A stretch of 53,257 nucleotides of DNA from a virus (Duplodnaviria; Caudoviricetes), in IMG/VR virus record IMGVR_UViG_3300019887_000002, positions 1 to 53,257 of that record. One strand, 5' to 3'. Position numbers and translations under genes: made by a program. Below are positions 5,001-50,527 of this stretch, one piece after another. Each line of letters begins with the position of its first letter. Position 1 is the first letter of the stretch. The notes under the pieces were generated by a model that was not told the origin of the DNA, did not search any database, and saw only the letters and a list, made by a program, of their open reading frames with translations.

Positions 5001-5031
5001 TACCTGTTGTATGGTATACGATTGGCCACTC

Positions 5032-5061
5032 TTGAAAGTGGCCTTTCGTAGGCTATATAAT
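5032..5061 (+). promoter_or_regulatory. promoter TTGAAA-N18-TATAAT
   Basis: Promoter family; -35 flanked by GGCCA/TGGCC dyad. Confidence 0.75.
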
Positions 5062-5095
5062 AAGGATAGAAGCAAAAACGAGAGAGGGAACAGTT

Positions 5096-5188
5096 ATGAC
5101 TCCTACCGAGGTTTCACTCATGACCATGGGCTGTACTGTTATGGGTATCATCGTCGGGTGGGTTTCTTGCTGGCTCCTCAATCGATAA
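5096..5188 (+). CDS. small membrane peptide (30 aa)
   Basis: RBS GAGGG; hydrophobic MTPTEVSLMTMGCTVMGIIVGWVSCWLLNR*. Confidence 0.55.
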   Translation: MTPTEVSLMTMGCTVMGIIVGWVSCWLLNR

Positions 5189-5202
5189 GGAAAGGAGAAC
5201 GG

Positions 5203-5529
5203 ATGAGAGGACCAAAGAAGACCTGTAGACGATGCGGAACACACCACTGGCAGCAAGGTGACTACTGCAAACAGTGTCAGGCGTCCCTGGGCAAAGGTGA
5301 GTGGGCAGAGATACTGTCCGAGGATATGGAGAAGGAACGTCAGCGGATCCTAGCAGCTCCAAAAGCGCCTACCTCAGTGTCCAAGTTGATCACGTACCCA
5401 TTCCCGATGTCAGATGGGACGATGGCGTACCTGAACTTGCCAGAGACCATCTTAACGATAGATGTACAGCGACTTCAGAGAATGTTGGACACGTTGCCTT
5501 ACCAATCTGGTGACGGAGAGGAGGTGTAG
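5203..5529 (+). CDS. zinc-ribbon protein
   Basis: AAGGAG RBS before ATG 5203; CRRC...CKQC. Confidence 0.7.
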   Translation: MRGPKKTCRRCGTHHWQQGDYCKQCQASLGKGEWAEILSEDMEKERQRILAAPKAPTSVSKLITYPFPMSDGTMAYLNLPETILTIDVQRLQRMLDTLPYQSGDGEEV

Positions 5530-11276: not shown

Positions 11277-11411
11277 GTGTACGGTGATGCTATAGCTGAA
11301 GGCGACGTACCTGAAGAGGACCTTGCTTCTGACGATGATAAGGTTGTCACAGGTGTCAGCCCGCCCGAGGGACGTGAGGAGGAAGATTGGGAACCAAAGC
11401 CGACCTCATAG
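11277..11411 (+). CDS. small highly acidic protein overlapping the endolysin start (44 aa)
   Basis: GGAGGTG RBS, GTG start; MYGDAIAEGDVPEEDLASDDD...WEPKPTS*. Confidence 0.6.
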   Translation: MYGDAIAEGDVPEEDLASDDDKVVTGVSPPEGREEEDWEPKPTS

Positions 11412-12166
11412 GGGTCCTACAGAGTTTCGTCGGTATCAAAGAGGCTCCTGACGGATCGAACATGACACCAATTGGTGCTGAGTTCGGTTGGAACGGAGTC
11501 GCTTGGTGTTGCGAAACTGTCTCGGTTGCTCTGAAGCGTGCAGGCGTTCCAGGGTTTTGGACTGCGGGAGTACTGGACGCTCGTGAACGTGCCAAGCGAG
11601 GAGAAAATGGAATGCAGTTTGTTCCATTCGCAGGAGCACCTCAGCCTGGAGATGCAATCCTCTTCGACTGGACTGGGGGCAGAGGCACAGGGTCTCCTGA
11701 CAGCTTCCACATCGGTACGATCATCGAGGTTGTAGGCGACACGTTCCATACCATCGAAGGCAACACGTCGAGTGGATGTGCTTGGGTTTGGAGAGATCGT
11801 GCCTTCGTGCAAGGCTTCATCCGCTTCCCATTCGACGCTCCCGTTCCAACACCTACACCACAGGAGGGTGATTTGGGCTGGCCAAGCTTTACTGACCCCA
11901 AGAACGGTAACAAAGTCATCGCGTCTCCAAAGGGTGACTTCTACAACTACAACTCGAAGGGTGCTCCTGGAGGCAACCAGTGGCTTGGTAACCTAAGTCA
12001 GTTCAACGCTGGTGAAGGAACTCCAAATGGACCACTCGTCGCAATCGAGCCGTGGGATGATGGTGGTTCGTTCTCGGGTATCATCGCGTTCTGTGTCGAC
12101 GCGGTCGGCAAGGTACATCCGTACGCTCTTCCGAGCAACGGTGTCTACGGGTACGGGAAGAAGTAA
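11387..12166 (+). CDS. endolysin, CHAP-domain amidase/peptidase
   Basis: AWCC...PGDAILFDW...HIG...TIEGNT CHAP motifs; PT linker; C-terminal putative cell-wall-binding domain. Confidence 0.8.
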   Translation: MGTKADLIGVLQSFVGIKEAPDGSNMTPIGAEFGWNGVAWCCETVSVALKRAGVPGFWTAGVLDARERAKRGENGMQFVPFAGAPQPGDAILFDWTGGRGTGSPDSFHIGTIIEVVGDTFHTIEGNTSSGCAWVWRDRAFVQGFIRFPFDAPVPTPTPQEGDLGWPSFTDPKNGNKVIASPKGDFYNYNSKGAPGGNQWLGNLSQFNAGEGTPNGPLVAIEPWDDGGSFSGIIAFCVDAVGKVHPYALPSNGVYGYGKK

Positions 12167-18699: not shown

Positions 18700-20877
18700 G
18701 TGCTGGTACCAAAAGTCGGGCTGTTCTTGAAGTTCGTTCTGGGAGACGCACAGGGAGTCCTGTGCGTCTCCCGACGTCCTGCAGGAACGAAACAGTTTGA
18801 AGAGGAATACTTCAACTACCCGGGAGAGATCAAGGCTACTCTTGAGTGGCTAGCCGCCTCGGAAAGAGGTTACGATCTATACTTCTGCCCAAATTTACTC
18901 GCTGGCAACAAGCGTGACAAGGCTAGTGTCCTTTCATGCGGATGTGCTTGGGCGGATCTCGATTCGTGTAAGCCAGAGAACATGCTAATTCCTCCTACCA
19001 TTGTCGTTGAAACTTCTCCCCAGAGATACCAAGGGTACTGGGTGTTCGATGAAGCTGTCGAACCTGCAGTAGCAGAGGACATCTCCAGACGCATTGCTTA
19101 CTACCATGCAGAACAGGGAGCAGACAAGAGTGGTTGGGATCTATCACAACTGCTTCGGATCCCATACTCGTACAACTACAAGTACGGTAACAACCCAGCA
19201 GCCATTCAGATTAGGAAGGCAACCAACGAGCATTACACTCCCGACTCCTTCTCAGTCTATCCACAGGCCGAGGGGTTTGAGTACACGGAGATTCCGTTTC
19301 CAACTGAATGGCCTCAGGAAGATGCAGATGCAACTCTGCAGAAACATCGTACACACTTTCATCCACGAGTCTGGGACCTATACAATACGGTGCCTGACGA
19401 GCACAAGTGGTCGACAGCACTCTGGCAACTAGAGATGTTGTTGTTCGAAGGTGGAATGGTTCGTGAGGAAGTGTTCATAGTTGCCAAGGCTGCAAAGTGT
19501 AACAAGTACGAACGGGATGGCAGATCAGACAAGCTCCTGTGGAAAGATGTATGTAGGGCGTGGGCAAGGGCAGTTGAGAAGACAAAAGCTATTGCCTTCG
19601 GTCAGTATGATCCGCCTCACGAACAAATGTTAACGGACGGAGAACGAGAATGGGTAACTTCGAACCTGAGCATCGTGGAACGTTACATATCGTGGGCTCG
19701 CCAACTTGGCGACGCTGCATGGCAGTATCATCAGGCAGGTGCTTTCATTACATTGTCCTCGCTATTAGCAGGTTCAGTTCGACTTCCTACATCCTATGGG
19801 ATGATGGTACCGAATTTGTGGTTTATGATTTTAGCGGATACAACTCTCACGCGGAAGACTACGGCGATGGACATCTCCGTCGATTTGTTGACAGAGATCG
19901 ACCCAGATATAGTGCTGGCGACGGATGGGAGTATCGAGGGCTTGATGACGTCATTGTCTATGCGTCCGGGTCAACCATCTTTGTTCTTACGGGATGAGTT
20001 CTCCGGCTTACTATCTGCTATGGAGCACAAGGACTACATGTCAGGTATGGCTGAGATGTTCACTAAGTTGTACGACGGTAAGTTCCAAAAGCGGGTACTC
20101 CGGAAGGAGATCATCGAGGTACGCGACCCCAGATTGATCCTGTTCGCAGGAGGTATCAAGACTCGCGTACAAGACATCTTGACGTACGAACAGGTTGCAT
20201 CCGGGTTCATTCCAAGATTCATCATTGTCAGTGCAGAAGCTGACATCGCTGCACTGAAGCCTCTAGGACCCCCAAGTGAACGATCGAACCTTGAACGTGC
20301 GAAGCTACTCTTTGAACTAACTAAGATCAAGAATCACTACTGCCAGACGACCGAAGTCAAAGTTGGTATGAAGGTCTTCCGTCAACCGAAGCAGTGGGAC
20401 GCACGGCTCACCGAAGAAGCGTGGGCGTTGTACAACAAGTACGAAACAACTACACTTGCAATAGCAAACAGAGCAGGACGTAAAGATGTCTTGACACCTA
20501 CAATGGACAGACTCTGCAAGAGTGGTCTGAAGTGTGCAGTCATCTTGGCTGCTGTCAGACATCTTGGTGACCAGATTGTTGTAGAGGAGCAAGACCTTGT
20601 ACGTGCATTCTACTACGTCGAACAGTGGAGAGGTTTCGCTACTGATTTGATTCAGAACATCGGTAAGTCGATCCAGGAGAGAGGATTGGAACAGATTGAG
20701 AGAGCTATAGTCAGATCACCCGGTGTAATGCGTAGTACATTGATGCAGTACTTCCATCTGACGGCAAGAGATACTGACATGGTACTCCAGACCCTAGAGC
20801 AACGTGGAACTATTTCTCGTGTCAAGAATGGTAGGTCAGAGACTTTGTGGCCAAGCAAACTACAGGAGGTCAAGTGA
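18700..20877 (+). CDS. RepB-type primase fused to DUF3987-like helicase/ATPase domain
   Basis: WADLD, VETSP.RYQGYW, LLRIP primase motifs; C-terminal RKTT, RDEF, SGFIPRF. Confidence 0.82.
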   Translation: MLVPKVGLFLKFVLGDAQGVLCVSRRPAGTKQFEEEYFNYPGEIKATLEWLAASERGYDLYFCPNLLAGNKRDKASVLSCGCAWADLDSCKPENMLIPPTIVVETSPQRYQGYWVFDEAVEPAVAEDISRRIAYYHAEQGADKSGWDLSQLLRIPYSYNYKYGNNPAAIQIRKATNEHYTPDSFSVYPQAEGFEYTEIPFPTEWPQEDADATLQKHRTHFHPRVWDLYNTVPDEHKWSTALWQLEMLLFEGGMVREEVFIVAKAAKCNKYERDGRSDKLLWKDVCRAWARAVEKTKAIAFGQYDPPHEQMLTDGEREWVTSNLSIVERYISWARQLGDAAWQYHQAGAFITLSSLLAGSVRLPTSYGMMVPNLWFMILADTTLTRKTTAMDISVDLLTEIDPDIVLATDGSIEGLMTSLSMRPGQPSLFLRDEFSGLLSAMEHKDYMSGMAEMFTKLYDGKFQKRVLRKEIIEVRDPRLILFAGGIKTRVQDILTYEQVASGFIPRFIIVSAEADIAALKPLGPPSERSNLERAKLLFELTKIKNHYCQTTEVKVGMKVFRQPKQWDARLTEEAWALYNKYETTTLAIANRAGRKDVLTPTMDRLCKSGLKCAVILAAVRHLGDQIVVEEQDLVRAFYYVEQWRGFATDLIQNIGKSIQERGLEQIERAIVRSPGVMRSTLMQYFHLTARDTDMVLQTLEQRGTISRVKNGRSETLWPSKLQEVK

Positions 20878-21635
20878 CACAGACCCAGCGGACGTTCGCT
20901 CACCCTTCCGATCCTAAAGCAGTCGTCCTCCTCAGTGGAGGACTCGACAGTACCGTCCTCGCATACATGATGTCGGAGAAGTACAACTGTCACTTCCTCT
21001 CGTTCAACTACGGACAGCGACACAGCAAGGAAATCCTATACGCTGGGCAGACGGCTCGTCGGTTGGGCTCTCCTCACAACGTCATTGACTTGACGTCGCT
21101 AGGCCTCCTGTTGAAAGGCTCTGCACTGTCTGACCCCAACGTGGCTGTTCCAGAAGGCCACTACTCAGCAGACAACATGGCGATCACGGTTGTGCCCAAC
21201 CGCAATGCAACTATGCTCTCGTGTGCCACTGCTGTTGCCGTTGCAGAGAAAGCTTCCGTCGTCGCTTTCGCACCTCACTTTGGTGACTACCAGCAGTACC
21301 CTGATTGCAGGACTCGATTCGTTGACCGCCTCCAAGAGGCTCTGACGATCGGCAACGAGGGATTCATGCTTGGAGGTTTCCGTATCGAGGCACCCTTCAT
21401 TGCTATGTCAAAGGCGGACATCGTCACAATTGGTGAGAACCTTAAGGTTCCCTTCGCAAGTACCTGGAGTTGCTACAAAGGCGGAAGCGTTCACTGCGGT
21501 CGGTGTGGAACTTGTGTGGAGAGAGCAGAAGCATTCTGGGAAGCGCAAGTTGCAGATCCGACAACGTACGCCGACAACGAGTACTGGAGTCAAGTGACAG
21601 GTAAGTGGCCGATCATTCTTGGAGGATCCAAATGA
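20874..21635 (+). CDS. queC: 7-cyano-7-deazaguanine synthase
   Basis: SGGLDS, YGQRH, VPNRN, YPDCR, SCY...CGRCGTC. Confidence 0.96.
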   Translation: MTQTQRTFAHPSDPKAVVLLSGGLDSTVLAYMMSEKYNCHFLSFNYGQRHSKEILYAGQTARRLGSPHNVIDLTSLGLLLKGSALSDPNVAVPEGHYSADNMAITVVPNRNATMLSCATAVAVAEKASVVAFAPHFGDYQQYPDCRTRFVDRLQEALTIGNEGFMLGGFRIEAPFIAMSKADIVTIGENLKVPFASTWSCYKGGSVHCGRCGTCVERAEAFWEAQVADPTTYADNEYWSQVTGKWPIILGGSK

Positions 21636-22075
21636 CGATTGAAGTCGGTTCCATTCGTGTAATGCATAACGTGGAGATGGCTCACCGTCTCACGAAGACA
21701 CCTGGTAGGTGCCAGAACATCCATGGCCACAGTTGGAAGGTGATCCTCACACTAACTGGGGAGATCGACGAGAAGGGTGTACTAGTCGAGTTCGGTTACC
21801 TCAAGATGGCGTTCCGTGACTTCCTCAACACGAACTTCGATCACCACCTCCTACTCAACTGGACTGATCCAATGTTCAGGAATGTAATGCTAGAAGGTGC
21901 TCTCCTACCAGGTGCCACTCAAATGGAAGGAGAACCTACAACCGAGAACTTCGCCAAGCTCATCTACGACTGGGCTGTACAAGAGTTGATCGGCAAGATC
22001 GGGAACGTATATAGTGCACGAGTTGAAGTCTGGGAGACTGCAACAAACTGTGCTGTGTACCCTGCGGAGGGATGA
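21632..22075 (+). CDS. queD: 6-carboxy-5,6,7,8-tetrahydropterin synthase
   Basis: AHRL...CQNIHGH, DH, PTTEN, VWET. Confidence 0.95.
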   Translation: MTIEVGSIRVMHNVEMAHRLTKTPGRCQNIHGHSWKVILTLTGEIDEKGVLVEFGYLKMAFRDFLNTNFDHHLLLNWTDPMFRNVMLEGALLPGATQMEGEPTTENFAKLIYDWAVQELIGKIGNVYSARVEVWETATNCAVYPAEG

Positions 22076-22076
22076 C

Positions 22077-22313
22077 ATGGCTAGAGTGTACGAGTTGATA
22101 CCAGGAGACAGAGTGAAGGTAGTGAGTATGTCAGGTACCTTCATAGCATCGTGTGACCACCCTCTCTTCGATGGTTTCATGTTGGTCATCTGGAGAATGG
22201 AAGATGGTACGTGGAGTCACGATGCTCTCCTCGCAACACAAGAGGTTGGTGAAGTTGTTCCAAACGAGGATCGGGTTGCAAACCTTCAACAGGCACTACT
22301 GAGGAGAGTTTGA
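22077..22313 (+). CDS. hypothetical protein within the que cluster
   Basis: GGAGG RBS; SH3-like beta pattern. Confidence 0.7.
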   Translation: MARVYELIPGDRVKVVSMSGTFIASCDHPLFDGFMLVIWRMEDGTWSHDALLATQEVGEVVPNEDRVANLQQALLRRV

Positions 22314-23087
22314 ATGGAAGGCAATCGAGCATTCAAGAGAGGACACCTTCGTGTAAGTGGAGATGGCATCTTCTACACACTTCAAGGGGAAGGGATCACA
22401 CAAGGTATTCCAGCTATCTTCCTCCGTCTACACGAGTGCAACCTGAAGTGCAAGTGGGGCGAAACGATTTGTGACGCCTCGTACACGTGGGACAAGTCTG
22501 ACAACAGGTACTGGCAGGAGTCTCTAGACGTTCCTATGGAGTCTCTTACCCAAGACTTGTGGAAAGCAATGCAAGGTCACAACTGCTACAGAATCGTGAT
22601 CACAGGTGGCGAACCAATGATGCAGCGAGGAGCACTGGACACTCTGCTTCAAAATCTCTTCAGCCGGTTACCGACACCCTTTGGGAAGATTTGGGTAGAG
22701 TTTGAAACCAACGGGACGATTGCTCCCACCAAATTCATGGTAGAGAGCGCTAACAGGTACTTGGTTCAATTCAACGTCTCTCCAAAGTTGGCAACGTCAG
22801 GTAACGGTTCCTGGCGGGCACTCAAACCTGAAGTGTTGAAGGAGTACGCAGAAACAAACTCCTGGTTCAAGTTCGTGGTGGACGATGTCTTCGACGAGGA
22901 TGAGATCGTGGACATCGTGGAACAGGTACACTTGAATCCTATGCGTGTCATCCTCATGCCTCAGGGCGTTGATCCGATGACTCTGTGGAAGAACCAGCAG
23001 TTGTGTGCAGAGATCGCTATGAAGCGTGGATGGCGAATGACAACTCGTCTACAGATCGCTCTCTGGGGGAATACTCGTGGCACCTAA
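22314..23087 (+). CDS. queE: 7-carboxy-7-deazaguanine synthase (radical SAM)
   Basis: FYTLQGEG, CNLKC...CD, ITGGEP, ETNG, NVSPKL. Confidence 0.95.
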   Translation: MEGNRAFKRGHLRVSGDGIFYTLQGEGITQGIPAIFLRLHECNLKCKWGETICDASYTWDKSDNRYWQESLDVPMESLTQDLWKAMQGHNCYRIVITGGEPMMQRGALDTLLQNLFSRLPTPFGKIWVEFETNGTIAPTKFMVESANRYLVQFNVSPKLATSGNGSWRALKPEVLKEYAETNSWFKFVVDDVFDEDEIVDIVEQVHLNPMRVILMPQGVDPMTLWKNQQLCAEIAMKRGWRMTTRLQIALWGNTRGT

Positions 23088-23253
23088 CCTTGGGCTAGCA
23101 ACAACTCGCGAACTCCTAACAGAACTTGCTGTGCGTATGGAAGTTACGCAGAACAGTACTAACGGTCGAGCTCTCGGACGACTGTGCCGAAATGCTCTGG
23201 AGCATCTCGCAAAAAACGTACTGGACTATCGGACAGTTAGTTCGGAGGGTTAG
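23077..23253 (+). CDS. hypothetical protein (58 aa)
   Basis: GGGGG RBS, GTG start; MAPNLGLATTRELL...LDYRTV. Confidence 0.6.
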   Translation: MAPNLGLATTRELLTELAVRMEVTQNSTNGRALGRLCRNALEHLAKNVLDYRTVSSEG

Positions 23254-23823
23254 ATGGCAGAGTCATACCAACGTAGATTGACAGTACCTATGGCCGCAGA
23301 ACTCCTCAGGCGCTTATTGCCTGATGAGAACTGGGAAGACGAACATCTAAGGAGGACACCAGAACGCTTCGTGCAGATGTTGCATGAGCTTACAGACAGG
23401 ACACCGCATGAGTTCGACTTCACGATCTTCCCGAACGACGGGATTGACGAGATGGTCGTCGTTCAAGACATACCGTTCCGCTCACTATGTGCCCATCACT
23501 TGTTGCCATTCATCGGTGTGGCCCACATCGCATACATCCCAGACAAGAAGGTCGCGGGCCTGTCGAAGCTCCCACGCACTGTGCAGTACTGGTCGGCTGG
23601 GTTGTGGAGCCAAGAACGGCTGACAGAGAAGATCACCAGGTACCTAGAGGAGATGTTGGAACCGGTAGGCGTCGCGGTCGTCATGAAAGCGGAACACATG
23701 TGTATGTCACTCAGGGGTGCACAGGCACATGGCACTAAGACAACGACATCTAAAATGCTTGGAGTGTTCCTCGATCCATCTCGAGGTGCTCGACAGGAGT
23801 TCCTCAATCTGATTTCACATTAG
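23254..23823 (+). CDS. folE: GTP cyclohydrolase I
   Basis: TPER, SLCAHHLLPF, GLSK, QERLT, HMCM. Confidence 0.96.
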   Translation: MAESYQRRLTVPMAAELLRRLLPDENWEDEHLRRTPERFVQMLHELTDRTPHEFDFTIFPNDGIDEMVVVQDIPFRSLCAHHLLPFIGVAHIAYIPDKKVAGLSKLPRTVQYWSAGLWSQERLTEKITRYLEEMLEPVGVAVVMKAEHMCMSLRGAQAHGTKTTTSKMLGVFLDPSRGARQEFLNLISH

Positions 23824-28204: not shown

Positions 28205-28324
28205 GTGGCGCCAGTACTCGAAATTGGTCACACAGCTATCAAGTTCGGATGGGGATTCCTAGTCATTCTAGGTTGGCTCACTTTCATGATCATCGGACTA
28301 TCACAAAGCAAAAAGGAGGACTAG
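28205..28324 (+). CDS. small membrane peptide (39 aa)
   Basis: AGGAGG RBS; FGWGFLVILGWLTFMIIGL. Confidence 0.55.
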   Translation: MAPVLEIGHTAIKFGWGFLVILGWLTFMIIGLSQSKKED

Positions 28325-28659
28325 TGGCAAGTAAGCAGATGCCTGTTGGCACAAAGAAACAGAACCCTAACGGGTACTGGAGGATCAAGTGCGAGGATGG
28401 CTCGTGGCGATTCCTGCATCACGTCAACATCGAGAAGGCTCTAGGTCGTTCTCTAGGTGCTGGTGAACGAGTTACCTTCAAAGATGGTGACAGAGGTAAC
28501 TGCAACCCTGACAACCTCGTGGTGCGAATCGTTGGCAATACATCTCCAGGTAAGAGACGTGCACATCTCGAAGCCAAGCTCCAGGAGATCGTTGCAGAAC
28601 TGGAGCACCTAGGAGTGACTGTCGAGTACACGTTGCTCGAAGAATCTAAAGCTTCGTAA
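28324..28659 (+). CDS. HNH_3-type endonuclease-like protein (possibly inactive)
   Basis: GYWRIK...LHH...LGR.L...V.FKDGDR.N.PDNL. Confidence 0.75.
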   Translation: MASKQMPVGTKKQNPNGYWRIKCEDGSWRFLHHVNIEKALGRSLGAGERVTFKDGDRGNCNPDNLVVRIVGNTSPGKRRAHLEAKLQEIVAELEHLGVTVEYTLLEESKAS

Positions 28660-28681
28660 CGTTGAATTCACGTTGACTCAT

Positions 28682-28756
28682 ATTCAAAGCGAGTCAAACG
28701 CGATTGGTCCAAGAGCTTACGCATTAGTAACGCTAGTTTGACTCAGCGCTTTGAAT
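28682..28756. repeat. 75-bp imperfect inverted repeat
   Basis: ATTCAAAGCG/CGCTTTGAAT and GAGTCAAAC/GTTTGACTC arms. Confidence 0.75.
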
Positions 28757-28792
28757 CACGATGTCCGAACAGTTTGAGAGGAGGATTGACAG

Positions 28793-29287
28793 ATGCAAGT
28801 TGTAGTCGCCTTTGACCCAGGAGGCACAACCGGAATGACAGTTGCTCGGAAGAAAGATCCAGGACGTAGGGTCTCTGGAGAATGGACTTGGGAGTTCTAC
28901 GAACTAGGTCCATCACAGCATCACGCAATACTCTGGCGTGATCTCAACCATCTCAACGTTCTGATCCCAAAGAGCGTCGACCTAACAGTAGTGTGTGAGT
29001 CCTTCGACCATAGAGCCAACGAAGCAGCTGAACTGATCTCGTGCGAGTACATCGGCATCATCGTCCTGTGGTGTACTGTTAAGGAAGTGCGCCTAGTAAT
29101 GCAGACACCTTCCGAGGCAAAGAACTTCTGGACAGATAACAAACTCAAGCACCTGGGTCTCTACCACCCAACTAAAGGCGACCACTCGAACGATGCTACC
29201 AGACATGCACTCCGCTTTATCACACAGTGGAGAGACAAGACGTTCATCTACCAACTGAAAGGAATCAACGGTGCCTCGGCTGTTTGA
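28793..29287 (+). CDS. RuvC-like Holliday junction resolvase
   Basis: AFDPGGTTG, VCESF, HSNDA.RH. Confidence 0.85.
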   Translation: MQVVVAFDPGGTTGMTVARKKDPGRRVSGEWTWEFYELGPSQHHAILWRDLNHLNVLIPKSVDLTVVCESFDHRANEAAELISCEYIGIIVLWCTVKEVRLVMQTPSEAKNFWTDNKLKHLGLYHPTKGDHSNDATRHALRFITQWRDKTFIYQLKGINGASAV

Positions 29288-30752
29288 AACAGGTGTCGGA
29301 CTAACTACCCCTCTCGATCAACTACAGGATGCAGCTCACAAGGCAGCACGCATCTGGAGGAACAACGCACGAGTTGACCAACGGATGCCTCCTGGAGACT
29401 GGAGAGTTTGGCTCATCGTCGGTGACAGAGGTTCTGGGAAGACATATGCTGAGACACTAGCAGCCTTGGCCGCTCTTGACGGGCCTAAGAGGAACATTGG
29501 TTTCGTCGCTCCATCCTTGAGTGCTGCCAAGATGGTTAACTTGGACGGAGAGTCAGGCATCTTGGCAGCAGTCGGTGGTGAAGAGAACGTTGGTAAGGTC
29601 ATCAGAGGACAGAATGATGTCTACTGCATCTTCAACAATGGCAGTCAGATTGAGTTCCGCTCCTCTGCCAGTCCTGAGAGCATACGAGGTAGGAACTGGG
29701 ACCTCTGTATCTGGGATGAAGTCATTGCAGCGAAGCACCCACTTGCAACCTGGCAACAGATCCAAGCTGCTACACGCAAAGGTCGCGCCCGTGTGGTGAT
29801 TGGTACTTCATGGGACGCTGATCACCCAGACAAAGGCAAGCCTCGGTACGAGGAAGCCAAAGCAGTTCTCTCCAGCATCCTGAAGCGAGAAGGTAGTGGA
29901 GTTATTGTCACGTTCATGAAGTCGTCCGACAACACTGCACTCTCCAAGGAGTGGCTAAAGGAGAACATTGGACACACGGACCTCGACAACCTTCTCAACG
30001 TCGACCCAAGCGCCGGCTTCTTCCGCTCCCCTATGTTTCAATACCACAGGGCGATGGAGGATAGGATTGAACTTGGAGACAAGAAGGTTAGGTACGGAAG
30101 GCTCTATCGCTTCGTTGTCGTACATCCTGTGATGCAGGACGACTCTCCGTGTATCCTCCTACATATCGGGACGTTCAAGAGTCACGGGAAGAGGTACATA
30201 GTCATCTTGGATGAGATCCGAGAATACATGCCTGCTGCGATGGCAGTCGAACGTGGACGAGAGGTTATGAAGACCCTCAAAGCCAACTACGTCCTGTACG
30301 ATGCAGCACACTACTTCGGACCTCCAGAGACGGATCCACGCTTCAGGTTGATCAAGGTACCACCTCCCCCTCATACAGCCTTCCCGGTACAGAAGGCCCT
30401 AGCCGAAGGTAGGTTGTGGTTACAACCAGAGATGAAAGAGGACCTGCTCGCATACGTACCTGAAGGTATAGAGTCTAAGAGGGCTGACAGAGTGATCGCC
30501 TTGTCTCTTGCAACAACTGAGGTTGACGCACTCGACTATAGGAAGACACCTCCAAGAGTACGGCCCGTGTGGTTCAGGATCTTGAAGTGGCTAGGGGTAG
30601 CGTACTTGACTTACAACTTCTTCATCTTCTCGTTCATCCTGATGCTCCTCCTACTACCGTTCGACTTCATTGCAATACTCCTACTCATTAGGATGAGGAA
30701 GAGGAAGAAGGCAGAAGTTGAGAAGCGGATGAAGACGATGGGATTGATCTAA
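29271..30752 (+). CDS. second terminase-large-subunit homologue with degenerate nuclease and C-terminal membrane anchor
   Basis: Q motif/PPGDWRVWL, Walker A GDRGSGKT, PESIRG, Walker B CIWDE; ~35-aa hydrophobic C-terminal segment followed by RMRKRKK. Confidence 0.8.
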   Translation: MPRLFETGVGLTTPLDQLQDAAHKAARIWRNNARVDQRMPPGDWRVWLIVGDRGSGKTYAETLAALAALDGPKRNIGFVAPSLSAAKMVNLDGESGILAAVGGEENVGKVIRGQNDVYCIFNNGSQIEFRSSASPESIRGRNWDLCIWDEVIAAKHPLATWQQIQAATRKGRARVVIGTSWDADHPDKGKPRYEEAKAVLSSILKREGSGVIVTFMKSSDNTALSKEWLKENIGHTDLDNLLNVDPSAGFFRSPMFQYHRAMEDRIELGDKKVRYGRLYRFVVVHPVMQDDSPCILLHIGTFKSHGKRYIVILDEIREYMPAAMAVERGREVMKTLKANYVLYDAAHYFGPPETDPRFRLIKVPPPPHTAFPVQKALAEGRLWLQPEMKEDLLAYVPEGIESKRADRVIALSLATTEVDALDYRKTPPRVRPVWFRILKWLGVAYLTYNFFIFSFILMLLLLPFDFIAILLLIRMRKRKKAEVEKRMKTMGLI

Positions 30753-31378
30753 CGCTTACGTGGACGGCCTCTCCCACGACTGGAACTACGTCGTCTAACC
30801 CTATGATGCGTTGCGTAGTACCTCTTAAGGCTAGCTTTGATCTTTGCTTTGGTCACTGCTGAGAGATGCCTACCTTTAAGGGCCGCACTAATCTTTGCTC
30901 GTGTCGTCGTACTAACTGTACGACCCTTTAGTGCGGCACTAATCTTGGCCCGCGTAGCTGCAGACACTTGACGGCCTTTCAAGGCAGCACTGATCTTTGC
31001 TCGTGTGGCTGCTGACTCGATCCTGCCCTTAAGAGCTGCACTGATCTTAGCTCTGGAGGCTGCAGAAATAGTACGACCCTTGAGTGCTGCAGATATCTTT
31101 GCACGAGCTGCCGGACTTAAAGTCCGTCCCTTGTTAGCTGCTGCAATCTTTGCTCGTGTAGCTGCAGAGACTACCCTGCCTTTGTTTGCAGCAGATATCT
31201 TTGCTCTCGTTGCCGCAGACATTGGGTGGCCTGGATGGTGTCTACCTTTGAGAGCAGCACTAATTTTGGCTCGTGCTGCAGGAGATAGAGGTCGGTGCTT
31301 CCTGCCTTTGTTAGCGGCACTGATCCTTGCCTTAGTGACTGCTGAGAGGTGTCGTCCAGTCTTGTGAATGTAGGGCAC
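30749..31378 (-). CDS. very basic NUMOD3-repeat DNA-binding protein with C-terminal AT-hook
   Basis: 10 copies of SAATRAKISAALKGR-like unit; ends RGRGRPRKR; GTG start directly after the upstream stop. Confidence 0.8.
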   Translation of the reverse strand: MPYIHKTGRHLSAVTKARISAANKGRKHRPLSPAARAKISAALKGRHHPGHPMSAATRAKISAANKGRVVSAATRAKIAAANKGRTLSPAARAKISAALKGRTISAASRAKISAALKGRIESAATRAKISAALKGRQVSAATRAKISAALKGRTVSTTTRAKISAALKGRHLSAVTKAKIKASLKRYYATHHRVRRRSSSRGRGRPRKR

Positions 31379-32137
31379 CTAGAACCTTTTGGCAAGGTAG
31401 TTCAACCTGGCACCTAGAAACCACATTACATTCGTTGATGTATCCGCTGCTATAGTGCCATTACGATCTAAGACCATTGTAATTAAACCACCAGCAGTAA
31501 TTGGTGCATTAATATTGAAGAGTGCTGGTATGACTGCATATCCGTTATAAGAAGGCACGGTTACACTTCCTGTTGCAGCCCCCGAGTCAGCGACAGTTCC
31601 TCCTGGAGTACCCGACGCGATAGCCTTACCTTGTCCGTCGCATCGAAAGTCACCAGTACCTCCACCCTGATAGTGGATATCTACTTGAATCACTCCACTA
31701 GTATAGTCCCAAGGCACCTCCGTAGTACCTACAACACCGTCAGCAAATCCATGACGCAGACCCCAAGCGAACGCCATATTTGCCCAACCTCCGAAGGAGG
31801 TGTAACTAGGACCACCTAGTCCAGCATCGAACTGTTTAGCAGGTATCCAACGACTGTTCAGGTACGTACCACTCTGAGCACCTATCACTAACAAGTCGCC
31901 ATTATCGTCAAGTACCCAAACTGTATCTAGTGCTTGCAGTGTAACGAGTGTAGTGATATTGAAGGCATTGGCAGTTGCAGCTCCTTTTAGTCGCAGGTCA
32001 ACTGTCCCGTTGGCATGAACGGTGTCTACAACAGCCTGGTGCCTATCAATAGGATGCCCAGGACGTCCTCCAGGACCTCTGATAGGACGCTTAAACAAAC
32101 CCGCCATTGGGTACAGAGGGTTCTGGTTAGGATCCAT
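31379..32137 (-). CDS. minor tail protein
   Basis: N-terminal OB-like AVVDTV...DTVWVL...LLVIG module; end of tail cluster. Confidence 0.7.
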   Translation of the reverse strand: MDPNQNPLYPMAGLFKRPIRGPGGRPGHPIDRHQAVVDTVHANGTVDLRLKGAATANAFNITTLVTLQALDTVWVLDDNGDLLVIGAQSGTYLNSRWIPAKQFDAGLGGPSYTSFGGWANMAFAWGLRHGFADGVVGTTEVPWDYTSGVIQVDIHYQGGGTGDFRCDGQGKAIASGTPGGTVADSGAATGSVTVPSYNGYAVIPALFNINAPITAGGLITMVLDRNGTIAADTSTNVMWFLGARLNYLAKRF

Positions 32138-33264
32138 TACGCAGCGATCCTCCTAGCAACACATTGCATAGGAGCAACATCGTCCAGAGGCATTGTGACT
32201 GTGTCCAAAACGAACTTCTGGTTGACACCTGACTTCGCTCTCTGAACGTATATACAGTCCCATGCCTCCAGCATCGGCACAACAACAGACGAGAATCTGA
32301 ACCCAACGATTTGACCTTTAGACAGAGTGAGCAGTGAATTCGCAACCGCCAATGCTTGGTCTGCTGTTGTAATCATCGGACTCTTGTATGCAGGAGCTAC
32401 AGAGCCACCAAAGGCAATGTTGTTACTTGCTGGATCAGTAGGATCGATGTTCTGTGCTACAGCACGAACAGGTACGGAGTTACCTGTACTCTCTCCAGTC
32501 ACAAGCTGGTAGTTGTAAACCTTGTCTTCGTTCCAGTCCGTCGACAAGTCCAGGATGACATTTCGCGGTCCCTCTACGAACGTCCACAGGGGCTGTGCAT
32601 TATCGACGTTGGGGATCTCATCGATCACGATCTGACCTTGCCAGTCGAAGTACACTTGCTTCGCGGAGTCAGTTCCCAACTTGACACTGACGTCCCAAGG
32701 GTTGTCACTAGTTTGATATGTTGCTCCTGCTAAAGCGTACCCAGGACTCGAACCCATACGAAACGTATAGCCTGGTGTCCCTGAATTGATGATCTGTTGT
32801 ATTGCCGTGTACACATCTAGGCCTGCTGCTAGTGAGTACACGTCAACGAATCCTGATCGCTGTACCTTCTTCGCGCGGTCGTACCCCATGATCGTAATAG
32901 TCAGCCCCTGGCCAGAATCCTCTACTTGTGTCTGGTCAATACGGAACACACCGAGCGGAACGAATTCAGGAGGAGTAGCATCTTGGAAGTCTACTCCACG
33001 ATACAGCCATAGTTCGTTTCCAGTAGTTGGAGCAAGTAAGTCAGCAGTAGTACGAGGACTCAACGACCCTGTGGGGTCAGTCAGTTCGACTCGACACGAT
33101 CGGCGGATAGAGTTGGTTGAAGAGATAGTAATGTACCCGCTAGTAATTGCTAGTGTCTTCAACCAACTTGGTTGTATCTGCGAACCTGTCCAAACTTCTG
33201 CTTTGGTCACAACCTTGTGGCCCGTCATCAGGGCTGCTTGTAACTTGAGGGAGGCAGGAATCAT
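32137..33264 (-). CDS. minor tail/baseplate hub protein (DUF5047-like)
   Basis: IRRSC.VEL, VPLGVFRI, GYDR, FDWQG motifs; synteny. Confidence 0.8.
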   Translation of the reverse strand: MIPASLKLQAALMTGHKVVTKAEVWTGSQIQPSWLKTLAITSGYITISSTNSIRRSCRVELTDPTGSLSPRTTADLLAPTTGNELWLYRGVDFQDATPPEFVPLGVFRIDQTQVEDSGQGLTITIMGYDRAKKVQRSGFVDVYSLAAGLDVYTAIQQIINSGTPGYTFRMGSSPGYALAGATYQTSDNPWDVSVKLGTDSAKQVYFDWQGQIVIDEIPNVDNAQPLWTFVEGPRNVILDLSTDWNEDKVYNYQLVTGESTGNSVPVRAVAQNIDPTDPASNNIAFGGSVAPAYKSPMITTADQALAVANSLLTLSKGQIVGFRFSSVVVPMLEAWDCIYVQRAKSGVNQKFVLDTVTMPLDDVAPMQCVARRIAA

Positions 33265-37705: not shown

Positions 37706-38271
37706 CTACTGTCTAGGCATGTCTCGCTGACGCTTCTTCTCGAAGGCTTCCAGTACCATCAAGCCTCCAATTACATAAAAACTATCCTCCCTCAATACCA
37801 CCGAAGGAGGACAGTTCCAAATCTGCGATAGCTCTATTACGTGTATGAGTCGTTCGACGTCTGGTTCAGGCCTCCGACTCATGAGGATGGAGGCCTCTAT
37901 CCGTTTGGGAGTGTTTCATCCTGTACGAACTCATGGAGGCTGTCAATCAGCTCGGCAATCTCTTGTCCGATACGAGGGTCAAGCTTCGTGAACGAGAGTG
38001 GCTTATTGAAGTCGATTGGCTGATCATTCTCATCAGTCAAGTTGTGGTTGACAACACACAGCCCGAACTCATATAGGGTTGTCTTCTTGTTGGCCATCTG
38101 CAACTCGCCTAACAGTTCCTTCGCCTTCCCTCCAACCGTCATCTTGCCAGCCATGTCTACACGTTGTAGCCACTGGTCGTATGACATGCGACGAAGTTCC
38201 ACGAACCCGTCAGGAGGAGCTGTCTTGAGATCGCACCTCTTTACAGATGCATCGACTGTTGCTCTTGGCAT
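37706..38271 (-). CDS. tail assembly chaperone, -1 frameshift (G-T) product
   Basis: Slippery CCCAAAC at 37903-37909; -1 frame open to TAG at 37706. Confidence 0.85.
37897..38271 (-). CDS. tail assembly chaperone (G)
   Basis: Between major tail and TMP. Confidence 0.85.
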   Translation of the reverse strand: MPRATVDASVKRCDLKTAPPDGFVELRRMSYDQWLQRVDMAGKMTVGGKAKELLGELQMANKKTTLYEFGLCVVNHNLTDENDQPIDFNKPLSFTKLDPRIGQEIAELIDSLHEFVQDETLPNG

Positions 38272-39209
38272 TACACGCTCTCCAGTGTTGTAACGACAAT
38301 CTCGTAGGCCTTGCCAGTACCTGCGTCCAAGTTACCTTGCCGTGTCTGTGTTGCTCTGATGATGTCACCCTCTCCTGTCAAACCAGTAATCTGATACGTA
38401 GTCTTGACAGCTGCAGCACATGTGACCTGAACGATGTTGTTGGTATCAAGAGTTGCGATGACTCGTGTGCTCTCAACCGTACCTGCTTTGAAAGCATCCA
38501 ACTCAGCACGACTCTGCCAGTCACGCTCACACGTGAAAGTGACATCACGTTGCTTGAAGCCAACGAACCTAGGCTTACGATCGGTGTACTGACGGAACTC
38601 AGGCGCTGCGTTGTCCTTCACATCAAGGGAGAAGGTATCGACATCAGCAACTTGAGTTCCAGTGGGCAACTGGACGTTGTACGAACCTGAGCCCATCGGA
38701 GAAGTTGTTGGAAATACAGGCGACCCTGGAACTGACTGAGTCGCTTCATCCATACCGATGATGTCACACTGGAACATGCCAATACCATCAGTACCGACTG
38801 TGATCTTGAAGTTCGAAACGGTACATCCAACCCATCCCTGAGCGATACCGTCACGAACTGTCGTGATCGACAACGTCTTGTTGGGAGGAGTGAATGACGA
38901 AGAGGGCGTGTAAGTGTAGACCGCAGGAGGACCTACAACCTTGGCAACAGTGTTCCGACTAGCGTGTAGGAAGTACACCAAGGCTTCAGTAAGCAACTCC
39001 ATGTCGATCGGACCGCCAATGTGAGTGTTACCAACAACCGTTCCAATCGCGTCGACAGACTGACGAATCGTCCGTCGTTGTACCTGGGCCTCCATGAACT
39101 CCATCTTCTCAGATTTGATCGGGAAGAACTTAGTGGGTGCTACATAGGTACCCATCGTCACTTCAAAAGCGACACCCAAGAATCCTCCACCACCAATACC
39201 GACTGTCAT
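38271..39209 (-). CDS. major tail tube protein
   Basis: GFLGVAFE.T.GTYVAPT.F N-terminus; synteny. Confidence 0.85.
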   Translation of the reverse strand: MTVGIGGGGFLGVAFEVTMGTYVAPTKFFPIKSEKMEFMEAQVQRRTIRQSVDAIGTVVGNTHIGGPIDMELLTEALVYFLHASRNTVAKVVGPPAVYTYTPSSSFTPPNKTLSITTVRDGIAQGWVGCTVSNFKITVGTDGIGMFQCDIIGMDEATQSVPGSPVFPTTSPMGSGSYNVQLPTGTQVADVDTFSLDVKDNAAPEFRQYTDRKPRFVGFKQRDVTFTCERDWQSRAELDAFKAGTVESTRVIATLDTNNIVQVTCAAAVKTTYQITGLTGEGDIIRATQTRQGNLDAGTGKAYEIVVTTLESV

Positions 39210-46937: not shown

Positions 46938-48439
46938 TATCCCTCCTGACTAGGATTCGACTTGCCCGAATTATCTGCACCAGCATTCTTACCAGGTAGA
47001 CCTTTGTTCATGTTGCCTGCCTGAGATTGTCTTGGCAACTCAGGAGCAGGAGCACCAGGCAACTGAGGAGCAGTGACCATCCGTTTGGTAGCAACGTCCT
47101 TACGAGGCAAGTCCATCTCTTCACGTGACCATGTCTCAAGAGGATCATCAGGCTCTATAATACCTGCACCGATCAAGTTCCTGAGTGCGAAACTGATCGT
47201 TCTCCAGTCGATAGTATCGCCAAGTCGGCGGCACTTCAGCTTCGGGAAGTCGATAATGTTCGCCCCAAAGTTGTACTGCACCAACTGAGGAATACCATAC
47301 GAGTTGAAAACATCAGCAACCTGATCAGCAACGAACCTAACTGACTTCAGGAAGAGTTCCTGATCTGCTGTAACAGCAGTTCCTCCTCGTGTCATGTCAA
47401 GGAAGGGAGCCAAGATGTTTTTGGCGATCTCCATGTCATGGTGTTCGATGGATCGCATGATGTCAACAGGTTGTCCCTCCATCTTCAACATGATGATATC
47501 CCAATTAGGAGGGAGAATGATATGGGCCTTCTCATTCGTACGAAGGTTACGGCCCATCTCATCAGCAAGTTTCCTGTCTGCTTCCGAGAAGTTCGGTGGA
47601 AGGTGGATAACAGGAATCCCAATGCCATGACGTTCCTTTTGGATAGCATCGATCTTGTACAAGTTATCCTTGTAGAACCAGTGCTTGTACGCCGTACGAA
47701 GGACAGACGTACCCTGAATGTTCCCTGACTCTTTCTCGAACGTGAACACCAACAACTTTGAGATGTCAATATCAACAGGTTGATACAGTTGTGGACCGTA
47801 AATCCACAACGTTTGTGGTCCTCCATGCAGATCGAAGTCCCACCTGTACACATCGAGAGGATGTCTCGGAGCCAACTTGCCCCAAACATACTTGCCGTCT
47901 CCAGCAGGACTGGGCACCCAGACCTTCTCGAACATGTAGTACCCGAAGTCCAACATGAGGAGAGCTTCCCGAAGTTGCTGTGGCCAAGAGACCGTCTGCC
48001 ACTTCGTCAGACAGTTCCAACAGAACTCTGCAATCTTCTTGTCACGAAGTTTGTCAGAAGCTGGGTCCATATACCAACGTGCAGCAACAACAGGAGTCTT
48101 GACAAGGTTTAGAGTACCCCGAATCTGCCCGTCACTCTTACGCATCTGCTCGTAGACACGCAGACCTCGGATACCACGAAGTTCAGGGTTGTAATCCTCT
48201 CGGATCAAACGGCTATAGGTCGTCGTACCAGAAACAGCAGCAGCTCCGATTTCACCTGTTGGTGGTTTCTCTACATACTTCTGAGTCACAATCAAAGCAC
48301 CGCCCGATACCCCAATCGGGTCGTAGTCTGCAAACAACTGTTGGAAGTCTGTCGTCTCCAGAGTCCGCACAGCCCCATTGCTCTCGACCACAGGCCCCGA
48401 TGATTCAGGTTCGTCGAACTCATTCCAAAGTTCTGGCAT
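46937..48439 (-). CDS. portal protein (Mu gp29/DUF935-like)
   Basis: D.QI.G.L..VK, GY..FEKVW, G.SVLR.AY..W..K, ER.G.GIP. Confidence 0.9.
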   Translation of the reverse strand: MPELWNEFDEPESSGPVVESNGAVRTLETTDFQQLFADYDPIGVSGGALIVTQKYVEKPPTGEIGAAAVSGTTTYSRLIREDYNPELRGIRGLRVYEQMRKSDGQIRGTLNLVKTPVVAARWYMDPASDKLRDKKIAEFCWNCLTKWQTVSWPQQLREALLMLDFGYYMFEKVWVPSPAGDGKYVWGKLAPRHPLDVYRWDFDLHGGPQTLWIYGPQLYQPVDIDISKLLVFTFEKESGNIQGTSVLRTAYKHWFYKDNLYKIDAIQKERHGIGIPVIHLPPNFSEADRKLADEMGRNLRTNEKAHIILPPNWDIIMLKMEGQPVDIMRSIEHHDMEIAKNILAPFLDMTRGGTAVTADQELFLKSVRFVADQVADVFNSYGIPQLVQYNFGANIIDFPKLKCRRLGDTIDWRTISFALRNLIGAGIIEPDDPLETWSREEMDLPRKDVATKRMVTAPQLPGAPAPELPRQSQAGNMNKGLPGKNAGADNSGKSNPSQEG

Positions 48440-49860
48440 TAGAACATCTTTCCGGTAGTGAAGTAGCCTGCTTCGGGCAAAGACAACTCTGAACCGTCGT
48501 CAGCTTCTGGTGTCCAAACCTCATTAAGGTGATGCTGCGCTCCGAGTACGAACAAACTCATGAGTGCGTAGCGGAGGGCATCAAGTGCGTTGTCTTCTTG
48601 ACCCATCCGCTTAACGGGCCCTGCCGCGTTCGACTCTGGCTGATTCCTATCTTCATCCGGACCTTTGTAGTTGATGAACTCCCGAATCGTGTTAGGACAA
48701 CTCCAGTCGACAAACAACATAGGTAGGAGTTCAGGCGTCCCATATTCATCGACAGTTCTACCGGTGTCATACCTCTTCAGGAACCTCTTAAGATTGTCGA
48801 CACCTTGACGCCAATTCACCTTAGCATCAGGGTCAACGATGCATGGTGCGAGGTACTGAGACACTGTTGCAGCCGCTTCAGGGTCTGCAGCGTCACCAAA
48901 GCAGCAGTCGATCTTGTACCCTGGAGGCTGTTCTCGTGCTTTCATCTCATCGATGTGGTCTCGAAGTTGCTTGTACGACTTGTAGTGCTCTCTCCAGACG
49001 GTAATGTTGTCCCATGGATCTACTTGGAACTCAATTGCAGCTAGAGGATGTACGAAACCCCAATCGAAGGCGATGTAGTTGGGCCATGCGGGGTTGTATT
49101 TGCACGTCCTGATGTGTACATTCTCGTCAAACTCCGCGTAGATCCTGCCTACGAAGCTGGCGAAGTCTGCCGCGATCTCCTGTGAGAAGAGATCCTTATC
49201 CATAGCCATCTCGAGGGAAAGGATCTCTGGGTCCTGACGTCCTCCCGGGTAGATAGCACGGTTCTCCCAGGAAGGGAAGTGGAAGGAAGCGTACTCCTCA
49301 TTTTCCGGGTTCAGACCGAGTTTGTACAGATCGTAGAACCAGTTGTGGCCTTCAGGAGTTGAAGCGAAGTCAGCAACACCCCTCTTGTCAGAAAGGGCAG
49401 GACGTAGAAACCGTTGGAAAGTACTTGCTCTGTGCTTAGCTGCCTCTGCAACGATCACTGAGTCTAACCCTTCGCCGACGAGTGTGTCCGGATACTTCGC
49501 TGACTTCACTTCAAGCCTAGTTCCCCAAGGCATCTGAATGTACATCTCACCTTGACGAGTGTTGTACGACTTCTTAACGCGCTTGTCTTGACCTAATTTC
49601 TGTCCTACGATAAGATCGTTCCAGATGTACCTGAATTCCTTCTCGCCTTCGTCGTACTCTCGGCCTACGATCCAGTGCCAAGTATCGGGCTTGAAGAGCC
49701 TCATCTCCATGTCTCTCGCGACCATTGTAGTCTTGCCAAAACGGCGCCCGCACGCTGCGACGCGGAACCGTGCCGTGTTGTTGTGATACCTCCACTGCTG
49801 TGTGTGAGGATTGTATCCGATCTTCTCGAAGTACTTTGCCCTGTCGATTAGCAGTCCCAT
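48439..49860 (-). CDS. terL: terminase large subunit (packaging)
   Basis: GRRFGKT, VGEGLD...AEAA, STPEG.NWFY; nuclease FDWG and DNALDALRY intact. Confidence 0.93.
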   Translation of the reverse strand: MGLLIDRAKYFEKIGYNPHTQQWRYHNNTARFRVAACGRRFGKTTMVARDMEMRLFKPDTWHWIVGREYDEGEKEFRYIWNDLIVGQKLGQDKRVKKSYNTRQGEMYIQMPWGTRLEVKSAKYPDTLVGEGLDSVIVAEAAKHRASTFQRFLRPALSDKRGVADFASTPEGHNWFYDLYKLGLNPENEEYASFHFPSWENRAIYPGGRQDPEILSLEMAMDKDLFSQEIAADFASFVGRIYAEFDENVHIRTCKYNPAWPNYIAFDWGFVHPLAAIEFQVDPWDNITVWREHYKSYKQLRDHIDEMKAREQPPGYKIDCCFGDAADPEAAATVSQYLAPCIVDPDAKVNWRQGVDNLKRFLKRYDTGRTVDEYGTPELLPMLFVDWSCPNTIREFINYKGPDEDRNQPESNAAGPVKRMGQEDNALDALRYALMSLFVLGAQHHLNEVWTPEADDGSELSLPEAGYFTTGKMF

Positions 49861-49870
49861 TATTCACCGT

Positions 49871-50527
49871 TCAGTTAGGAGGACAAATAATAGGACATTG
49901 AACGTTGAGTAAAGGTGTAGGAGACTGTGAAGGTTGTGGCGTCACAGTAGATGTCACAGTAGGTGTGACTGTTGGAGTGACTGAAGACGTAGGTATAGGT
50001 CTAGACCTGGGAGTAATTGTCACCGTTGGTCCTGGAACCGGGAATGGCGAAGGAATGATTACCAAGACACCGTCCTTACCATCTTTTCCGTTCGTCCCGT
50101 CCTTCCCATCTTTTCCATCTTTTCCGTCCTTCCCAGGTTTGCCCCCGGGTCCGGGGACTGTACTCGCAGCCCCAGCAGATCCAGTCTCACCTTTCAATCC
50201 TCGTGCAATACCTACAGCCCGGTGAAGTTCATTGAGAATACGAGGGCGGTCCTCTGGTGGGGCGTTCTCGAGTTGGCTTTCAAGTTGACTGATTCGAATA
50301 AGAGCGCTCTTGTACCGTTCTCCTTGCTGACCGTAACGGTACACCACGAAGACAAGGGCTACTGACAGCAGGACCATTATTATCGTACAGGCGTAGACCG
50401 GCCACCCTGAAGGGAACCTTCCCATCGGAGACATATGGGTAAGTTTTTCTTCCAGGCTCTTAGCCTCGGTCCTCAAGTCAGCCTGATGGTGCAGCACACT
50501 CTCCGGAGCTGTCGATGGAATACTCAT
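49871..50527 (-). CDS. membrane-anchored collagen-like protein
   Basis: TM helix, coiled coil, GKD repeats, Pro/Thr-rich tail, terminal CPIIC. Confidence 0.75.
   Translation of the reverse strand: MSIPSTAPESVLHHQADLRTEAKSLEEKLTHMSPMGRFPSGWPVYACTIIMVLLSVALVFVVYRYGQQGERYKSALIRISQLESQLENAPPEDRPRILNELHRAVGIARGLKGETGSAGAASTVPGPGGKPGKDGKDGKDGKDGTNGKDGKDGVLVIIPSPFPVPGPTVTITPRSRPIPTSSVTPTVTPTVTSTVTPQPSQSPTPLLNVQCPIICPPN

Follow-up and report, generated by a model that had tools for sequence, protein, structure and literature searches.

The virus contig analysed here (IMG/VR record IMGVR_UViG_3300019887_000002; all 53,257 nucleotides, hereafter the window) encodes on its minus strand, at positions 30749..31378, an intact and nuclease-free protein of 209 amino acids that carries ten near-uniform units of the DNA-binding module NUMOD3. 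The units are kept uniform by selection at the protein level, and the protein shares its nearly acid-free composition with a group of nuclease-less NUMOD3 proteins whose genes repeatedly lie among virion genes. The reading that we favour, tentatively and at somewhat below an even chance, is that the protein is a low-specificity polycation, produced late, that would coat the minor groove of the phage's own DNA, either neutralizing or condensing it in the head or protecting it on entry.

A stand-alone protein of ten NUMOD3 units

The initial annotation of this DNA described an open reading frame (ORF) for 209 residues with ten repeats, no aspartate and a single glutamate, ending in RRRSSSRGRGRPRKR, and all of these features were found in the sequence. 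The gene has a GTG start codon (31376-31378), a Shine-Dalgarno (SD)-like AAAAGG at 31385-31390 that is separated from it by a 6-nt spacer (start region 31376..31390, minus strand), and a TAG stop codon. Scans for promoters and terminators gave nothing above shuffled sequences. The protein contains 30 arginines, 25 lysines and 47 alanines, with a pI of about 12 and a net charge of about +54.

The repeats had been assigned to NUMOD3 by their pattern, and the Pfam scan agrees, with the NUMOD3 profile PF07460 matching nine stretches of the protein at 104.6 bits (cut-off 20.4, E 2.4e-30). A six-frame search of the record also yielded nine NUMOD3 matches, every one of them within the ORF at 30749-31378. 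According to PMC3664794, NUMOD3 is a minor-groove-binding helix, of which I-BmoI contains up to three copies. Pfam listed no other credible family for the 209-aa protein, and no helix-turn-helix or other specificity module. In PHROGs, the protein matches homing-endonuclease families in their NUMOD3 parts only.

The ten units span residues 12-189 (30812..31345, minus strand), and each contains one short predicted helix. As placed by a script, they start at residues 12, 32, 54, 71, 88, 105, 122, 139, 156 and 173, so that the spacing is 20, 22 and then seven times 17 residues, and the last unit is a divergent cap that ends in …SLKRYYA. A single-sequence AlphaFold2 model consists of ten helices, one per unit, connected by short linkers and with no globular packing (pLDDT 66.5, pTM 0.22). 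No sequence match for the protein was found in the PDB, a Foldseek search with this low-confidence model also gave no match, and the matches in the ESM Atlas scored 0.82, which is the noise level.

The array is followed by an arginine-rich tail, recognized by its sequence and composition, that covers residues 190-209 (30752..30811, minus strand). An AT-hook had been annotated here. PMC11526092 defines this motif as R-G-R-P with positively charged residues on either side, and residues 201-209, RGRGRPRKR, fit the definition, with the core at residues 203-206 (30761..30772, minus strand). When the 24-residue tail was shuffled, 1.4% of the resulting sequences contained RGRP. The assignment thus stands at the motif level, but it has no profile support, as the Pfam AT-hook gave no match up to E 10 for either the whole protein or its last 30 residues, in a search where the HMMER filters drop weak short matches. 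The core and its basic flanks resemble the AT-hooks of HMGA proteins, from which the 209-aa protein differs in having a single copy at its extreme C-terminus and no Pfam match.

The protein had further been described as a homing-endonuclease module without its nuclease, and no nuclease was found in the ORF or in the adjoining six frames. None of the Pfam families listed for the protein is a nuclease, and a six-frame search of the whole 53-kb record found no GIY-YIG and no HNH domain other than a sole HNH_3 match at 28411-28524, which lies on the opposite strand about 2.2 kb away, in a gene that is also present in relatives of the phage. Because the array starts eleven residues past the start codon and the gene has a start codon and an SD-like site of its own, the ORF is a complete cistron of the DNA-binding module alone.

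The array is not an assembly artefact, because identical contigs occur in public soil runs of two studies: a 5009-base contig from one run covers 30499-33000 with zero differences, and short contigs from a second soil study exactly match parts of the array and its start. Among cultured phages, a megablast search with 29000-33000 gave no match, and tblastn with P0001 gave only five weak matches, to endonuclease-type or hypothetical proteins.

The units are held uniform at the protein level

At the DNA level, the array consists of ten copies, mostly 51 nt apart, that are 61-73% identical. The ten 15-residue unit cores have a mean identity of 76% in protein and 64% in DNA. Where two units have the same residue, the codon differs at 62% of the positions, and serine is encoded by both TCN and AGY codons. 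Across the 45 unit pairs, a Nei-Gojobori count gave proportions of synonymous (pS) and nonsynonymous (pN) differences of 0.74 and 0.22, respectively. The synonymous sites are saturated; therefore, gene conversion cannot explain the uniformity, and it is the protein sequence that has been held. This is in line with the initial annotation, which had read the varied codons as a sign of protein-level selection.

The uniformity of the units was compared among 153 arrays with at least five units, taken from database matches and viral loci. The window array ranks sixth, with a score of 0.764 that exceeds those of all 135 arrays classified as other (mostly nuclease-bearing; median 0.489, maximum 0.752) and falls within the range of 17 nuclease-less arrays (median 0.707). 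Such uniformity would be expected if a protein binds DNA but does not need to recognize a long specific site.

A group of nuclease-less and acid-free NUMOD3 proteins

At least 3200 relatives of the protein were found in the protein database. Among the 120 listed, precomputed Pfam annotations assign a GIY-YIG domain to about one third, and several of those listed with NUMOD3 only showed a GIY-YIG-like N-terminus on reading. In viral contigs, 111 relatives were found, 80 of which were kept. Reading of their ORFs indicated that 24 of the 80 are nuclease-less: 19 begin with the array, and five have long N-termini that resemble over-called starts. Two proteins, at L021 1319-2158 and L087 4989-5474, combine an N-terminal NUMOD3 array with what looks by eye like an HNH-like C-terminus, the reverse of the usual order.

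The nuclease-less, acid-free group was delimited in this analysis by an N-terminal array, Ala at unit position 3 and no more than about 2% aspartate plus glutamate (D+E). The window protein shows the same traits and is also encoded within the morphogenesis block: its first unit starts at residue 12, position 3 is acidic in none of its ten units and Ala in seven, and D+E amounts to 0.6% of the array, compared with 0-1.7% in most nuclease-less proteins and 5-14% in nuclease-bearing arrays. The group has Ala instead of Glu at this position, and its unit consensus is identical to the commonest unit in the window protein. A terminal cap, …L[KR]xYYA, is common to the window protein and to P0038, P0104, L054 and L057, and some members also have an arginine-rich end.

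The group occurs in uncultured high-GC phages and in actinobacterial prophages, and the members used as examples come from L013, L016, L024 and L028, from a Kitasatospora plasmid (L253), from Amycolatopsis (L259) and from Actinocrispum (L252). They resemble the window protein in unit consensus, lack of acidic residues, high unit uniformity, arginine-rich end and virion morphogenesis setting. They differ from it in that, in most of them, the linkers are rich in His and the basic tail is about 100 residues long, and in that their genes follow a head-tail adaptor gene in DNA of 61-72% GC, whereas the window protein has two-residue linkers and a 20-residue tail, and its gene follows tail genes in a phage of 51% GC with unrelated neighbours. 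The tail of the window protein contains HHRVRRR but lacks the Trp of the HRVW-poly-Arg motif of the group. The tail part of one family member, used as query, retrieved only three proteins, which indicates that the tails of the group diverge too fast to be traced. In cultured phages, no match was found for one nuclease-less family member or for its adaptor-like neighbour.

Related arrays are encoded among head and neck genes

The 19 nuclease-less loci that were found first all have a GC content of 61-72%, and the GC content at third codon positions (GC3), 0.77-0.95, supports the reading frames of the arrays. One gene order is conserved in 18 of the 19: the major head protein gene is followed by small genes and by the gene for a 221-aa protein that weakly matches head-tail adaptors; next come the basic NUMOD3 gene, a gene for 191 aa and one for 387 aa, the last of which belongs to the same PHROG as 38271-39209 in the window. 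The same module is present on the Kitasatospora plasmid (pCMC57_01 of Kitasatospora sp. CMC57) and in the Amycolatopsis genome, in a prophage region of Amycolatopsis kentuckyensis. Two further lineages have the gene at other positions among virion genes. In L013, it is flanked by the genes for the major head protein and for Neck1, and the module consists of the PHROG types found in the window itself. In L252, an Actinocrispum wychmicini contig that is apparently a prophage, a 207-aa acid-free NUMOD3 protein (4791-5414) is encoded between TerL and the portal gene.

A second set of loci was collected by searching with the adaptor-like protein (alignment A1), which yielded 125 relatives, of which 80 were kept. 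An acid-free NUMOD3-like array lies 27-640 nt past the adaptor-like gene in 49 of these 80 loci, a proportion that overstates independence and is to be discounted, as the set was seeded from gene-bearing loci and includes near-duplicates. Of the remaining 31 loci, one is too short, 20 contain another hyper-basic ORF and ten contain none or are unclear. By reading, the 20 replacement ORFs have 32-69% Lys+Arg+His and at most 3% acidic residues, and several of them open with one or two NUMOD3-like units. In eight loci of related high-GC phage modules (L232, L235, L236, L237, L204, L210, L187 and L227), the protein encoded in the place of the NUMOD3 polycation has 53-69% Lys+Arg+His and repeats such as …YHLKHKR….

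Genome setting and neighbouring genes

The record is a linear contig with an estimated completeness of 83%. Its plus arm (1-30752) contains genes for a CHAP endolysin, a helicase, an exonuclease, Sak4, a single-stranded DNA-binding protein (SSB), a primase, QueC, QueD, QueE, GTP cyclohydrolase, a DNA polymerase and an HNH protein. The minus arm runs from TerL through the genes for the portal, the protease, the major head protein, the neck, the tape measure and the tail to a 252-aa gene and, as the annotation had it, ends with the NUMOD3 gene. Distant relatives of the tail protein in cultured phages (24-32% identity) all belong to phages of Actinobacteria, and all 168 matching cultured-phage records are actinobacterial (105 Gordonia, 32 Brevibacterium and the rest from other actinobacterial hosts).

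The 252-aa gene (31379..32137, minus strand) encodes a protein of no known family, has a low GC3 and has no counterpart in relatives of the phage. Its TAG stop codon (31379-31381) abuts the GTG start codon of the NUMOD3 gene, which is in the same frame. The GC3 of the two genes is similar, 0.38 and 0.40 in the 252-aa and NUMOD3 genes, respectively. Four homologues of the 252-aa protein, of 211-253 aa, are stand-alone proteins that share its C-terminal end. The 252-aa protein is probably a distal tail protein whose gene was acquired together with the NUMOD3 gene. A fusion of the two proteins by read-through of the TAG found no support, as no tRNA genes, and hence no suppressor tRNA, were found in the window, and the homologues end at the same C-terminus. 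A tail-protein homologue in a related record (G002:C1:9195-10328) contains one in-frame TAG.

On the opposite strand, a 493-aa terminase-like gene (29271..30752, plus strand) converges on the NUMOD3 gene. The stop codons of the two genes overlap, as annotated, with the TAA of the plus-strand gene at 30750-30752 and the TAG of the minus-strand gene at 30749-30751. The 493-aa protein matches the terminase large-subunit ATPase (Terminase_6N) at residues 49-185 and has a C-terminus that is first strongly hydrophobic and then rich in Lys and Arg, and it is a second terminase-like protein beside the true TerL, encoded at 48439-49860. No relatives of it were found in viral contigs, and it is absent from the 20 related records described below, in which the sole match was one record's own terminase. 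The proposal that the two convergent genes form a functional pair found no support beyond their adjacency: their GC3 differs (0.59 for the terminase-like gene and 0.40 for the NUMOD3 gene), and relatives of the phage lack both. For the suggested comparison of their co-occurrence, no relatives of the terminase-like gene were found. Searches for related loci with the 409-aa tail protein, the terminase-like protein, the 252-aa protein and the homologue P0124 returned no usable context.

A search of viral contigs with the major head protein yielded 187 relatives, and the 80 that were retained are 55-74% identical to it. Among the longer records that encode a relative of this capsid protein, we examined 20, which measure 31-133 kb and include four with a completeness of 90% or more. 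A recognizable homologue of the 409-aa tail protein was found in four. Three of them have a plus arm that closes with homologues of the polymerase, HNH and 164-aa genes and is directly followed by the minus arm; likewise in three of the four, a GH25 endolysin gene and small membrane-type genes are placed after the tail genes. The GH25 endolysin genes (L170 4411-5424, L173 4777-5739 and L172 3677-4672) contrast with the CHAP-domain endolysin gene of the window, which is on the other arm at 11387-12166. The lysis genes have therefore been swapped and moved.

Three other parts of the window deserve mention. A plus-strand row of QueC-, QueD- and QueE-like genes and GTP cyclohydrolase (20847-23823) adjoins the DNA polymerase gene. 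The row corresponds to the 7-deazaguanine pathway, by which the major groove of the phage DNA may be modified; no match to TGT or DpdA was found in the record. At 28249-29287, an HNH_3 gene and a gene of 150-164 aa (phrog_1981) end the plus arm, as they also do in L170, L171 and L173. Finally, a 218-aa protein with matches to collagen-like and tail-fibre PHROGs is encoded on the minus strand directly upstream of the terminase gene (49871-50527), an odd location for such a protein.

Weighing the possible functions

The initial annotation had proposed a DNA-coating role, and this is still the best reading, inferred from the sequence. In it, an intact, stand-alone polycation composed of ten near-uniform minor-groove helices with short linkers, and of an arginine-rich tail with an RGRP core, would most likely attach along the minor groove, largely irrespective of sequence, and would coat or neutralize the DNA. 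Little sequence preference is suggested because the units are uniform and acid-free, unlike the varied, Glu-bearing units of homing endonucleases. The protein might also accompany the phage's own DNA, condensing or neutralizing it in the head, or shielding its ends or its whole length on entry. This step is more weakly suggested, by the late position of the gene with the virion parts and by the look-alikes within head and neck blocks.

Several observations weigh against this interpretation, in addition to the composition of the adaptor-seeded set. The gene is located after the tail genes and thus outside the head-neck block. NUMOD3 was detected in only one of the 20 capsid-related records, as a single motif in a 194-aa ORF elsewhere in the genome. 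The three relatives with conserved flanks of the arm junction have no terminase-like, NUMOD3 or 252-aa gene, which marks the junction as a variable spot and the NUMOD3 gene as an accessory acquisition, probably made together with the 252-aa gene. As judged from these genomes, the gene is accessory and dispensable for this virion type. Homing endonucleases, too, settle in variable spots. When unit position 3 is left out, only six of the ten units score as the nuclease-less type, and only one of the nine linkers is His-rich (HHPGHPM), the short two-residue linkers of the protein being of the kind seen in endonuclease arrays. Because of these unit and linker counts, common descent with the nuclease-less group is only a possibility. 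There was also no RNA run among the listed public runs that hold the stretch.

An alternative is that the protein is a site-specific or regulatory binder, a domesticated DNA-binding domain of an endonuclease that acts as a repressor or anti-silencer, for example in late shut-off of early or host genes or in the displacement of a host nucleoid protein. A precedent is the PLE satellite protein CapR, a repressor that binds DNA and is related to a domain of homing endonucleases (PMC8096241), and NUMOD3 modules are described as anchoring I-BmoI, I-TevI and I-HmuI on defined sites (PMC3664794). The accessory nature of the gene would also fit, as genes of this kind at variable loci often have regulatory or counter-defence functions. 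However, the units are more uniform than those in all of the 135 comparison arrays, which is the opposite of what a long specific site demands, the position of the gene, as the final cistron of the late structural arm, is not that of an early gene, and Pfam indicates no helix-turn-helix or other specificity module. We therefore consider a regulatory role unlikely, although it is the strongest of the alternatives to a protein that coats DNA.

It is less likely still that the gene is all that is left of a free-standing homing endonuclease, a functionless remnant whose nuclease domain was lost after insertion at the variable arm junction. This explanation draws on the usual association of NUMOD3 with GIY-YIG and HNH endonucleases, to which most of the at least 3200 database relatives belong, and on the absence of the gene from relatives at a variable locus. 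Against it stand the intact ORF that opens exactly at the array, with no trace of a nuclease in nearby frames, and the pN between units far below pS. Moreover, in its acid-free make-up and its unit consensus the protein agrees with the nuclease-less group and not with endonuclease arrays, and the sequence is identical in two soil studies.

A role other than DNA binding, as a polycation at the tail end or linked to lysis that acts on anionic cell-wall polymers or the envelope, and might partly be made by read-through of the 252-aa gene, is very improbable: the upstream gene is in frame and separated by a single TAG and has an equally low GC3, and in three of the four tail-syntenic relatives a GH25 endolysin cassette takes the place after the tail genes, but NUMOD3 is described as a DNA minor-groove module (PMC3664794), a shared frame has a one-in-three chance, TAG is the stop of 19 of the 78 rough gene calls and no suppressor tRNA was found, and the four homologues of the 252-aa protein stand alone with the same C-terminus.

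Comparison with known systems

The homing endonucleases I-TevI and I-BmoI (GIY-YIG) and I-HmuI (HNH) contain the same PF07460 module, with one short helix per unit and tandem repeats as in the window protein. They differ from it in that the window protein has no nuclease and no helix-turn-helix, and ten units rather than one to three. Endonuclease units mostly have Glu at position 3, whereas those of the window protein are uniform, lack this Glu and are followed by a polybasic tail. CapR of the Vibrio cholerae PLE satellite is similar in being a DNA binder derived from a homing endonuclease that has taken on a non-homing task in a phage conflict, as described in PMC8096241. It is, however, a sequence-specific promoter repressor, and nothing in the window protein points to one site.

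If the 209-aa protein coats the phage DNA, as we favour, close parallels would be basic core or internal proteins such as adenovirus pVII, which is described as protamine-like in published abstracts, baculovirus P6.9 and the internal proteins of phage T4. All of these are strongly basic, are produced late and accompany packaged DNA; for the window protein, packaging is a candidate property. They have no sequence relation to it. The window protein had been called protamine- or histone-like, and this applies to its composition and charge but not to homology, as no such Pfam family and no match in PDB sequences or folds was found. HU, H-NS, Lsr2 and the protamine families likewise showed no relation by Pfam, PDB sequence or fold, the likeness being in charge only. 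Arg+Lys make up 26% of the window protein, far below the content of true protamines.

Nuclease-free NUMOD3 proteins already carry a generic NCBI name. None of the titles and abstracts on NUMOD3 that were accessible concerned such phage proteins, and in the accessible literature on internal proteins of tailed phages that are highly basic or resemble protamines, nothing of this kind appeared. What appears to be new is the acid-free variant with uniform units and its repeated placement among virion genes.

A bolder view, which goes beyond a DNA-coating function of the single protein and which we regard as speculative and rather doubtful, is that such genes represent a fast-evolving class of hyper-basic proteins encoded in the head and neck region, which might be called phage protamines and would be packaged with the genome or plugged onto it. 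Acid-free NUMOD3 arrays would then be one recurrent solution and the unrelated Lys/Arg/His repeat proteins others, all of them neutralizing, condensing or shielding the genome. The window protein would be a horizontally acquired member that coats the minor groove of a DNA whose major groove is probably modified with 7-deazaguanine.

Tailed phages are thought to package essentially naked DNA with few special internal proteins. A hyper-basic, putatively DNA-binding gene that recurs in a fixed place among head-neck genes, where it has repeatedly been built from a homing-endonuclease module or is replaced by other polycations, would point to an unrecognized way in which phages deal with the charge of their DNA, with its ends or with its protection. 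If true, it would also be a clear case in which part of a selfish element has been turned into a structural or protective tool. For the window itself less is gained in practice: its gene, although real, intact and subject to selection, is accessory.

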